From the IMG/VR virus record IMGVR_UViG_3300035670_000132, positions 14,513-78,512 of that record: DNA of 64,000 nucleotides; one strand, written 5' to 3'. Both the position numbers and the translations under genes were made by a program. This document shows, piece by piece, positions 60,127 through 61,308 of this stretch. The notes beneath the pieces are model-generated. The model was not told the DNA's origin, searched no databases, and saw only the letters and a program-made list of their open reading frames with translations. The stretch comes from a virus. Each line of letters opens with the position of its first letter. The stretch's first letter is position 1.

Positions 60127-60155
60127 TTGACATCGTGATAGAAATTTGATACAAT
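60127..60155 (+). promoter_or_regulatory. Sigma70-type early promoter
   Basis: TTGACA-N17-TACAAT with TGn. Confidence 0.8.
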
Positions 60156-60211: not shown

Positions 60212-60439
60212 ATGGCATTCGTAACATCATCAAAGACTCAAAAAGAAATTCTTCTATCGTATCTTCGAGGAACATCGCGTGTTCTGAGTGCATCTCAAGC
60301 ACTTTCTATGTTTGGAGTTAAAAATCTTAGCGCAAGAATGAGCGAACTACGCCGATCTGGATATACTGTTCGCTTATCAAAAAATAAGAGCGGAAAAACT
60401 ACATATTCCATTTTTGATCAAGCAGACGTCAAAAAGTAA
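60212..60439 (+). CDS. Small winged helix-turn-helix protein
   Basis: QKEILLSYL...LSASQA..FGVKNLSARMSELRRSGY. Confidence 0.75.
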   Translation: MAFVTSSKTQKEILLSYLRGTSRVLSASQALSMFGVKNLSARMSELRRSGYTVRLSKNKSGKTTYSIFDQADVKK

Positions 60440-60447
60440 TATAAATA
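60440..60447 (+). promoter_or_regulatory. Late promoter TATAAATA ahead of the hsp20 leader
   Basis: Exact consensus. Confidence 0.75.
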
Positions 60448-60451
60448 CACA

Positions 60452-60680
60452 TATCTCACTCGGGATGGGAACGTAAGATTAGCCGGCACAACGATATGGT
60501 GCCCCTGTACTTCGGTAAGCAGGACTAATTCATCCCCTACCTTGGGAACGTTTGTCGCTACGATAAAAGGCGTCAACTGGCGGCTGCTGCCAGGATTGTA
60601 TTCAACGCCAAGGATATGATCAAGTGAGCACCTTACGCCTTTTGGGTAAGGAATCAACATCACTCGCTTAATAAAGGAGA
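60452..60680 (+). ncRNA. Candidate structured cis-regulatory RNA (tandem two-unit leader) upstream of hsp20
   Basis: GC-richer 230-nt noncoding stretch with nested stems gggatg/catccc, ggcac/gtgcc, cctg/cagg, ccttgg/ccaagg, ctggc/gccag, ccttac/gtaagg; repeated TGGGAACGT and ACGATA. Confidence 0.6.
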
Positions 60681-60687
60681 AACTATT

Positions 60688-61164
60688 ATGACACATCTAT
60701 CTGTATTCGGTCCAGGATTCAAGGAATTTGACAAGTATTTTGTCGGCTTTGAGGACCAATTCAATCGCCTATCTAAGATGCATGACGATCTAACGAAGGG
60801 CATTCCTAACTATCCTCCATACAATATCAAGAAGACTGGCGAAAACACATACGCCATCGAGCTTGCTGTTGCTGGCTTTGGTAAGCAGGACATCGAGATT
60901 GAACTAGAAGATGGCAAGCTAGTCGTGAAGGGTTCAACATCAGACAACACTGACGAGAACTATCTATTCAAAGGCATCGCAAATCGCGCATTCACTCGCG
61001 CATTCGCATTGAATGATCAAATCGAAGTCAAAGACGCAGAAATGATCAATGGCATGCTCAAAATTTTCTTAGAGCGTATCATTCCAGAGCATAAGAAGCC
61101 AAAGAAGATTGCAGTCAAAGAGAAAGCTGAGAAGACTTCTTCTAAGCAATATTTGACTGAATAA
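60688..61164 (+). CDS. hsp20: Small heat shock protein Hsp20 (IbpA-like)
   Basis: NYPPYNI, IELAVAGF, GIANRAFTRAF, NGMLKI.LERIIPEHKKPKKI. Confidence 0.95.
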   Translation: MTHLSVFGPGFKEFDKYFVGFEDQFNRLSKMHDDLTKGIPNYPPYNIKKTGENTYAIELAVAGFGKQDIEIELEDGKLVVKGSTSDNTDENYLFKGIANRAFTRAFALNDQIEVKDAEMINGMLKIFLERIIPEHKKPKKIAVKEKAEKTSSKQYLTE

Positions 61165-61166
61165 TC

Positions 61167-61280
61167 ATGTTAGCATTCATCAAAGACGTATTCAGCGCTT
61201 TACTTCATTACTCAAGAGAGTATAATGATTATAAAGATGAGCAACTGAAAAAAATTGGTTATATCGAGCGTTGGTACTGA
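61167..61280 (+). CDS. Small hypothetical protein (37 aa, not in ORF track)
   Basis: MLAFIKDVFSALLHYSREYNDYKDEQLKKIGYIERWY*; fills the gap between hsp20 and the terminator. Confidence 0.45.
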   Translation: MLAFIKDVFSALLHYSREYNDYKDEQLKKIGYIERWY

Positions 61281-61287
61281 AGCATTC

Positions 61288-61308
61288 TGGGGGCGCAAGC
61301 CCCCATTT
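61288..61308 (+). terminator. Terminator-like hairpin
   Basis: tgggggc-gcaa-gccccca followed by ttt. Confidence 0.7.

Follow-up and report, generated by a model that had tools for sequence, protein, structure and literature searches.

The subject of this study is the 248-nucleotide gap ahead of the small heat-shock gene hsp20 in a 64-kb stretch of DNA (hereafter the window), which is part of the 78.5-kb IMG/VR virus record IMGVR_UViG_3300035670_000132. The window comes from a T4-like myovirus, with a DNA polymerase about 55% identical to those of cyanomyoviruses, and the gene order around the gap is clamp loader subunits, regA, a 75-residue winged-helix open reading frame (ORF; 60212–60439), the gap itself, hsp20, a 37-residue ORF, a MazG-like gene and gp43. 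The hsp20 gene (60688–61164) encodes a 158-residue IbpA-type small heat-shock protein (Pfam HSP20, E = 8.6e-18) with 43% identity to Salmonella IbpA, and a T4-type late promoter, TATAAATA, can be read directly from the sequence at 60440–60447; these features, and those of the leader described below, lie on the plus strand. With a probability of roughly 60%, we consider the region to be the 5′ leader of a late hsp20 messenger RNA (mRNA) made up of two functional parts, a ROSE-like RNA thermometer and an accessory 5′ domain serving as stabiliser or insulator. The anatomy of the leader, its covariation and the homology of its 3′ part with ROSE-like leaders are established by the sequences.

A preliminary description had interpreted the gap as two similar aptamer-like units in tandem, followed by alternative pairings near the ribosome binding site (RBS). 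A direct check of the sequence recovered every motif on which it relied, each where it had been placed: two copies of GGGAACGT (60467–74 and 60544–51) and of ACGATA (60491–96 and 60560–65), the hairpins GGCAC/GTGCC (60485–60503), CCTG/CAGG (60504–23), CGC/GCG (within 60554–74) and CTGGC/GCCAG (60577–93), the possible closing helices GGGATG/CATCCC, GATTAG/CTAATT and CCTTGG/CCAAGG, and the segments CTCACT (60455–60), AAGTGAG (60622–28) and CTCGCTT (60663–69), the last adjoining AAGGAG (60674–79). When the leader of the window is folded alone, it differs only marginally from shuffled sequences (z = −1.72), and therefore a single sequence proves little and the support must be sought in homologues. 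No match was found by blastn with the leader against cultured phages; relatives were collected through an Hsp20 search of IMG/VR, which returned 592, and two motif scans which added several hundred loci. These homologues bear out the notion of a conserved, structured and cis-acting leader RNA on the hsp20 message, 3′ of a late promoter. Their common plan runs, from 5′ to 3′, through the late promoter, GGGAUGGGA, one to five structured modules, a hairpin with a bulged G and a GCC...GGG top, an A/U-rich linker, ACUCGCUU, a loop of 3–6 nucleotides, (A)AGGAG and the start codon. The modules are interchangeable across the family: 91 distinct leaders carry a single H-type pseudoknot of free sequence and 119 carry hairpin/pseudoknot units as in the window. 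The family fold is in fact pseudoknotted, and not nested as it had been drawn.

Leaders nearly identical to that of the window, with 5–8 differences, are present in marine, lagoon and crustacean metagenome contigs from three other studies, and several of these differences shift the sequence toward the family consensus, so that the architecture is not an assembly artefact. A search of IMG/VR for the same tandem order (a double pseudoknot and then a CUACCUU hairpin) retrieved chance matches only; the order is nevertheless regarded as real because the near-identical contigs exist in other runs. The leader family is essentially confined to phage contigs. A pattern scan with a specificity of 22 bases over 185,579 prokaryotic genomes produced 52 matches, 51 of which are due to chance in GC-rich DNA, the sole true match being a 1.2-kb contig binned into a Chitinophagia metagenome-assembled genome. 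A metatranscriptome contig, X20, was considered as evidence of expression and set aside, as it covers 60386–60502 of a relative and can show neither a transcript start nor expression of the leader.

The 3′ module (60631–60679) is composed of two hairpins. Hairpin I (60631–60651; CCUUAC-G-CC UUUU GG-GUAAGG, with a bulged G) has compensatory changes at five of its seven pairs in alignment A1 (112 non-redundant sequences), where it is 97.6% paired and where none of 500 shuffles reaches its covariation score; it thus provides the structurally conserved upstream hairpin expected of a ROSE-like element. In hairpin II (60662–60679) the anti-Shine-Dalgarno (anti-SD) segment CUCGCUU (60663–69) pairs across the loop AAUA with the Shine-Dalgarno (SD) sequence AAGGAG (60674–79), leaving G60666 unpaired, and this pattern occurs once in the window against 0.01 occurrences expected by chance. 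The pairing of a U(U/C)GCU motif with the SD is a hallmark of ROSE-like thermometers (PMC3669281), and here a motif of this type is imperfectly paired with the SD, in the 5′ untranslated region (UTR) of an IbpA/Hsp20-type gene, which is also where such thermometers reside. The CUCGCUU–SD pairing is kept in 95.8% of the A1 cells, and although the motif had served as bait in retrieving the sequences, the same pairing is found in leaders of cultured phages which were not used as bait. The preliminary description is upheld to the extent that an element masking the RBS exists, CUCGCUU over AAGGAG in the window, but it had overlooked that the RBS-proximal part is a ROSE-like thermometer module. As to the possibility that hairpin I, the penultimate one, is an intrinsic terminator or attenuator, this was rejected, its mean stem energy being only −6.8 kcal/mol and the linker which follows it in the window not being U-rich.

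Profile searches agree with this assignment. No Rfam 15 family reaches its gathering score anywhere in the window, and the sole match at E≤10 is ROSE_3, which covers 60629–60693, and hence hairpin I, with 16.6 bits (E = 0.66) and reaches 30.9, 30.0 and 22.5 bits in relatives. A covariance model of hairpins I and II (R2), which has the window among its 112 training sequences, gives 56.5 bits over 60619–60697 for this training row, 35–40 bits for the independent hsp20 leaders of five cultured Kyanoviridae phages (L460–L464: Pelagibacter phage Mosig, Methylophilales phage Melnitz and the cyanophages P-RSM1, S-CRM01 and P-RSM4), and 18.4 bits (E about 9e-4) for the Salmonella ibpB leader. In the five cultured phages the leader is minimal and ROSE-like, with the two hairpins placed about 60–85 nucleotides 5′ of hsp20, directly after a TATAAATA-like motif, and with no upstream domain. 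It follows that the two-hairpin leader is the ancestral core and the 5′ domain an accessory of the uncultured lineage.

The phage module therefore has several points in common with the leaders of Pseudomonas ibpA (ROSE_3, RF02523; PMC3669281) and enterobacterial ibpB: the position in the 5′ UTR of a gene for an IbpA-type small heat-shock protein, a 3′ hairpin whose U(U/C)GCU motif (CUCGCUU in the phage) forms an imperfect duplex with the SD, one G staying unpaired and the AUG remaining free, and an upstream hairpin with a GCC...GGG top, to the extent that the phage-derived model recognises the Salmonella leader. It differs in being phage-encoded, in being served by a T4-type late promoter rather than by sigma-32, in having a thermal behaviour that is predicted, and in being preceded by about 140 nucleotides of pseudoknotted modules. 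By analogy with characterised ROSE-like elements, we infer that hairpin II responds to temperature: at low temperature the RBS would be masked by the imperfect CUCGCUU:AAGGAG pairing, with G60666 unpaired, and warming would melt this weak hairpin and allow translation of Hsp20.

A distinct mode of control would result if AAGUGAG (60622–60628) acted as a switching segment, as formerly proposed, pairing either with the 5′ segment CUCACU or with the anti-SD CUCGCUU, the latter pairing freeing the SD. Both pairings exist in the sequence and the one with CUCGCUU is part of the minimum free energy structure of the whole leader; also, inclusion of AAGUGAG raises the predicted SD exposure from about 0.05–0.13 to 0.19–0.33 (nearest-neighbour folding; in both cases the values from 10 to 42 °C), and AAGUGAG and its partner segments are unchanged in the near-identical contigs, although these are too similar to the window to be informative. 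However, the AAGUGAG:CUCGCUU duplex has an energy of −7.5 kcal/mol, which is at the level of chance (z = −0.3 versus shuffles), and the 183 family leaders examined show, if anything, a slight depletion of segments complementary to the anti-SD (mean z +0.57). CUCACU, for its part, belongs to the tract of a conserved 5′ hairpin. The alternative pairing is not conserved in the family, and the switch is therefore not accepted as a conserved mechanism; as a three-way switch restricted to this lineage it appears improbable.

Upstream of the thermometer, the accessory domain extends over 60453–60593. A predicted GGGAUGGGA hairpin comes first in it, then a double H-type pseudoknot, the hairpin whose loop is CUACCUU, another H-type pseudoknot and, last, a hairpin specific to this lineage. 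The domain opens with the 5′ element (60453–60471), composed of a pyrimidine tract (AUCUC) and, 3′ of it, the invariant GGGAUGGGAA (60462–71); this element is predicted to form a 5′-terminal hairpin. In 91 of the 123 relatives having a TAAATA motif, the invariant element lies 11–14 nucleotides downstream of it. Nearly all extended leaders contain GGGAUGGGA, including those retrieved without it as bait, with GAGAUGGGA taking its place in L014 and L038, and a YCCC/UCUC tract is always found 5′ of it, at a variable spacing; in folds of 124 contexts, UGGGA is the part most often paired. The support for this hairpin is conserved complementarity and not strict covariation. A tiny ORF starting from the AUG inside GGGAUGGGA was discarded, as inspection by eye of the family leader sequences evidenced no SD and no conserved frame or length.

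The first pseudoknot module (60472–60523) is a double pseudoknot, as concluded from alignment A2 (67 core sequences, including the window) and from the model derived from it (R1). In this module CGU (60472–74) pairs with the loop ACG (60491–93) of the hairpin formed by the stem GGCAC/GUGCC (60485–89 with 60499–60503), and GCC (60482–84) pairs with GGU (60514–16) in the loop of the next hairpin, whose stem is CCUG/CAGG (60504–07 with 60520–23). Compensatory changes are observed at all five pairs of the hairpin 60485–60503, one pair of the stem 60504–23 varies between U-A, A-U and C-G, and overall 98.3% of the A2 cells are paired, compared to 79% in shuffles. The pseudoknots themselves covary: at the variable pair of GCY:RGU, 37 sequences have U-A and 29 have C-G, a single one departing from this, and in long variants the homologous pseudoknot stem appears as CGUG/CACG (18), CGGG/CCCG (6) or CGAG/CUCG (4). 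We have here the arrangement which defines an H-type pseudoknot, that is, a hairpin loop that pairs with a flanking strand and covaries with it, and the double pseudoknot is a well-supported description of unit 1. Judging from these alignments, the repeated GGGAACGU and ACGAUA represent the two strands of the pseudoknot stem CGU:ACG, and the loop of what had been taken for a UUCG hairpin pairs with the upstream GCC.

The second unit is constructed differently. Its first part is a hairpin (60533–60547; UCCC/GGGA) with the conserved loop CUACCUU, homologues of which, with the loop (CU)ACCUUA, are found in all leaders of the B and C types; 93.5% of the cells of its stem are paired, and the changes are mostly one-sided. 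The possibility that the CUACCUU loop kisses the GUAAG loop or the SD was dismissed, since there is no consistent complementarity and the bases of the GUAAG loop covary with another partner. Pseudoknot module 2 (60549–60574) follows, in which CGU (60549–51) pairs with the loop ACG (60560–62) of a hairpin with the stem GUCGC/GCGUC (60554–58 with 60570–74), which contains a U-U mismatch. In alignment A4 (41 sequences) its pseudoknot stem is 96.9% paired and the whole module 93% paired, with few double changes and thus weak covariation; stem variants are CCGU/ACGG, CUGU/ACAG and UCGU/ACGA. In the near-identical contigs, A60548U adds a fourth pseudoknot pair and UC60555-56AU restores the family stem GAUGC/GCGUC. 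The domain ends with a 7-bp hairpin, CUGGCGG/CUGCCAG (60577–60593), which replaces two further pseudoknots of the relatives and has homologues in the near-identical contigs only. In a simple scan this hairpin, together with its tail GAUUGUAUUC (60577–60603), was flagged as terminator-like, the tail being a poor one; it could attenuate the leader.

These data modify the notion of two similar units. The two share the first pseudoknot and in this respect they are alike, but they are not equivalent: R1 scores 55.8 bits at 60470–60525 and matches nowhere else in the window, and unit 2 has only the first pseudoknot in common with unit 1 and ends in the lineage-specific hairpin. Likewise, the repeated motifs do mark paralogous modules with differing stems, and the internal covariation which had been noted between these stems is real, but it arises from two paralogous H-type pseudoknots and not from two nested aptamers. 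The helices which would close nested units, GGGAUG/CAUCCC (60462–67 with 60531–36) and GAUUAG/CUAAUU (60477–82 with 60525–30), both within 60462–60536, were found in no other family members; like the third putative closing helix, CCUUGG/CCAAGG, and the AAGUGAG pairings, they are lineage-specific. Under a nested energy model the three closing helices are favourable, reaching −52 kcal/mol, whereas the family-style fold, its pseudoknots being left out of account, has −34 kcal/mol. They are in competition with both the conserved 5′ hairpin and the hairpin at 60533–47, and within the first two helices the near-identical contigs present only C60531U, which turns a G-C pair into G-U.

The proposal that each unit is a ligand-binding aptamer controlling access to the RBS, so that the leader would be a tandem riboswitch, can be judged against this structure. 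It draws on the presence of two paralogous modules with conserved bases that seem unpaired (GGGAACGU, ACGAUA and GUAAG), and on the likeness of compact H-type pseudoknots with A-rich third loops to small pseudoknot riboswitches. Among the latter, preQ1-I and SAM-II combine two short stems with a first loop of 1–3 nucleotides and an A-rich third loop, a topology which the phage modules share, although they lack an Rfam match, conserved ligand-pocket bases in the variable modules and a coupled expression platform. Indeed, no described aptamer class of Rfam was detected in the window, either at the gathering score or at E≤10, nor in 18 relatives at E≤5, and the Rfam 15 search, which had been suggested as a check, matched the upstream part to no family; even at E≤10 the window has no cobalamin match. 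The conserved CGU, ACG and GUAAG are themselves pseudoknot strands or loops, leaving GGGAUGGGA and the loop CUACCUU as the elements which pairing does not account for. Sister leaders replace the units by pseudoknots of unrelated, free sequence, in which no conserved loop bases were found (91 single-pseudoknot leaders), cultured relatives do without the whole domain, and unit 2 is devoid of the second half of unit 1. A conserved, mutually exclusive pairing with the anti-SD or SD that could act as expression platform was not found either, as judged from the window (z = −0.3) and the family (mean z +0.57) values above. A ligand-binding tandem aptamer is not upheld by these results, and we regard it as highly improbable.

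In the reading that we favour, a ROSE-like thermometer with an accessory 5′ domain, the latter most likely works, by analogy with other leaders, as a compact stabiliser of the 5′ end or as an insulator of folding. The late message would be shielded by it from decay that depends on the 5′ end, and the anti-SD would be kept from pairing elsewhere. This role is suggested by the fact that the domain begins at the predicted 5′ end, that sister leaders have its modules in exchangeable form and with free sequence, and that it is dispensable in cultured relatives. In agreement, pseudoknot strands and A-rich third loops explain the conserved loop bases, and upstream complementarity to the anti-SD is not enriched. 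Hairpins of the ompA type are 5′ stabilisers of bacterial and phage mRNAs, and the phage leader likewise has a stable structure within a few nucleotides of its predicted 5′ end; however, the phage domain is far more elaborate and more conserved in sequence, and its stabilising role is putative. A stabiliser or insulator function has been suggested for the stem-loops located upstream in ibpA (bioRxiv 10.1101/2020.04.20.050740) and in bacterial ROSE leaders.

A number of observations weigh against this interpretation. The ROSE_3 score of the window (16.6 bits, and at most 30.9 in relatives) falls short of the gathering score of 43 bits. Nearest-neighbour folding, a model which misses the non-canonical pairs of ROSE elements, predicts only a slight opening of the SD, which is unpaired with a probability of 0.05 at 10 °C and of 0.13 at 42 °C (0.19 and 0.33, respectively, with AAGUGAG included). 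In some relatives it is a phasin-like or a rubredoxin-like ORF that follows the same leader, and the stabiliser or insulator role is drawn by analogy alone. Also, both GGGAUGGGA and the CUACCUU loop are conserved to an extreme degree, beyond what a generic roadblock would need, which hints at a specific partner. Lastly, the upstream modules can be uncoupled from the thermometer, as follows from an internal promoter in relative L008 and from a distant module in relative L003.

In L008 (1251–1500) a second late promoter, GTATAAATAG, stands between the pseudoknot chain and the ROSE module, and in L003 (1049–1092) a hairpin-plus-pseudoknot module is located about 450 nucleotides 5′ of hsp20, ahead of another ORF. 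Both arrangements could be explained if the chain were a separate RNA that merely lies beside the ROSE leader, for instance a stable RNA arising by processing or the 3′ end of a transcript coming from upstream, and the terminator-like flag on the hairpin 60577–93 points in the same direction. The tail of that hairpin is, however, poor, and the chain of the window, like that of most relatives, has the late promoter on its 5′ side and the ROSE module on its 3′ side, without a further promoter in between; we regard a separate RNA as very improbable.

A specific partner could be the Hsp20 protein itself. E. coli IbpA represses its own translation via its 5′ UTR, for which the stem-loops of the UTR and Arg93 are needed, with contributions from Tyr34 and the basic residues 97 and 98 (bioRxiv 10.1101/2020.04.20.050740; PMC10474464). 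If the phage leader were such an autoregulatory operator, free Hsp20 oligomers would bind to it and repress translation, and aggregating proteins would titrate Hsp20 and relieve the repression; in that case the leader would respond to the demand for chaperone in addition to temperature, a reading which does not conflict with the thermometer. In the Hsp20 of the window, R100, Y42 and R104 align with R93, Y34 and R97 of IbpA, the same residues are found in the relatives of a 9- and an 8-sequence alignment and are missing from IbpB, and the protein could make specific contacts with the invariant GGGAUGGGA and CUACCUU loops. On the other hand, the equivalent of IbpA K98 is an alanine, and many relatives have a gene other than hsp20 as the first one 3′ of the leader. 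The arginine is equally conserved in cultured phages having minimal leaders and therefore does not explain the extra domain; a comparison of the Arg93 equivalent with the presence of the upstream domain was in fact abandoned as a test, the arginine being found in all phage Hsp20s checked and hence not discriminating. Compared with the E. coli ibpA operator (Miwa et al.; Cheng et al., PMC10474464), the phage system shares a structured ROSE-type leader before an IbpA-type gene and a protein that has retained the counterparts of Arg93 and Tyr34, on which mRNA binding depends; it departs from it in that its upstream structures are pseudoknots and not simple stem-loops, in the alanine at the K98 position, and in that binding is hypothetical. 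Altogether, an operator of this kind seems unlikely. Slightly more doubtful is the specific version of it in which the GGGAUGGGA hairpin and the pseudoknot chain form a docking platform for the phage Hsp20 via Arg100 (IbpA Arg93), the leader integrating temperature and the level of free chaperone; if true, this would be a virus-encoded sensor of the aggregation load during virion assembly, with a new RNA recognition fold. A precedent for pseudoknots as translational operators is provided by the leader of phage T4 gene 32 (PMC3014915, PMC10690425). It too belongs to an mRNA of a T4-like phage and has a 5′-proximal H-type pseudoknot, with an A/U-rich stretch between it and the RBS; the gene is nonetheless a different one, the phage hsp20 leader has several pseudoknots plus a ROSE hairpin, and the likeness is architectural.

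Regarding the genes that accompany these leaders, the first one in relatives is hsp20, or an ORF of about 75 residues followed by hsp20, or, rarely, a rubredoxin-like ORF. The ORF of about 75 residues, which has a phasin-like composition (M..AID..Q..K..F.K.FV), is located between leader and hsp20 in around half of the relatives (L010, L014, L018, L022, L049, L068 and others) and is missing from the window. In L087 (about 1869–2114), L181, L196 and L159 a ROSE-like leader stands ahead of a rubredoxin-like ORF of 47–48 residues with two CxxC motifs, and L087 also contains two leaders in tandem, about 170 nucleotides apart. In the window, a near-consensus sigma-70-type promoter (60127–60155; TTGACA, a 17-nucleotide spacer and TACAAT, with TG; 11 of 12 matches) precedes the 75-residue winged-helix ORF and looks like an early or host-polymerase promoter just 5′ of the late hsp20 unit. 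On the other side, within 61167–61305, the 37-residue ORF is immediately 3′ of hsp20 and is followed by a strong intrinsic-terminator-like hairpin (61288–61305; 7 bp, 6 of them GC, and a U-rich tail), which probably marks the end of the hsp20 transcript.

What is new here is an architectural variant of the ROSE-type leader of small heat-shock genes, with a 5′ domain which belongs to no described family. We found no description of ROSE-type RNA thermometers in phages, including on phage hsp20, in the searchable literature. The upstream pseudoknot chain is abundant (hundreds of IMG/VR contigs), covarying, essentially restricted to phages and absent from Rfam 15, and its parts are small and modular; as a caveat on its novelty, some of them may be among the approximately 8,500 candidate structured RNAs of viruses that were catalogued from IMG/VR in 2023 (PMC10690425). 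The ROSE-like module precedes hsp20 in all the cultured cyanophages checked, as well as in the pelagiphage and in the Methylophilales phage; if it works as it does in bacteria, T4-like aquatic phages would gate their chaperone by temperature in late infection.

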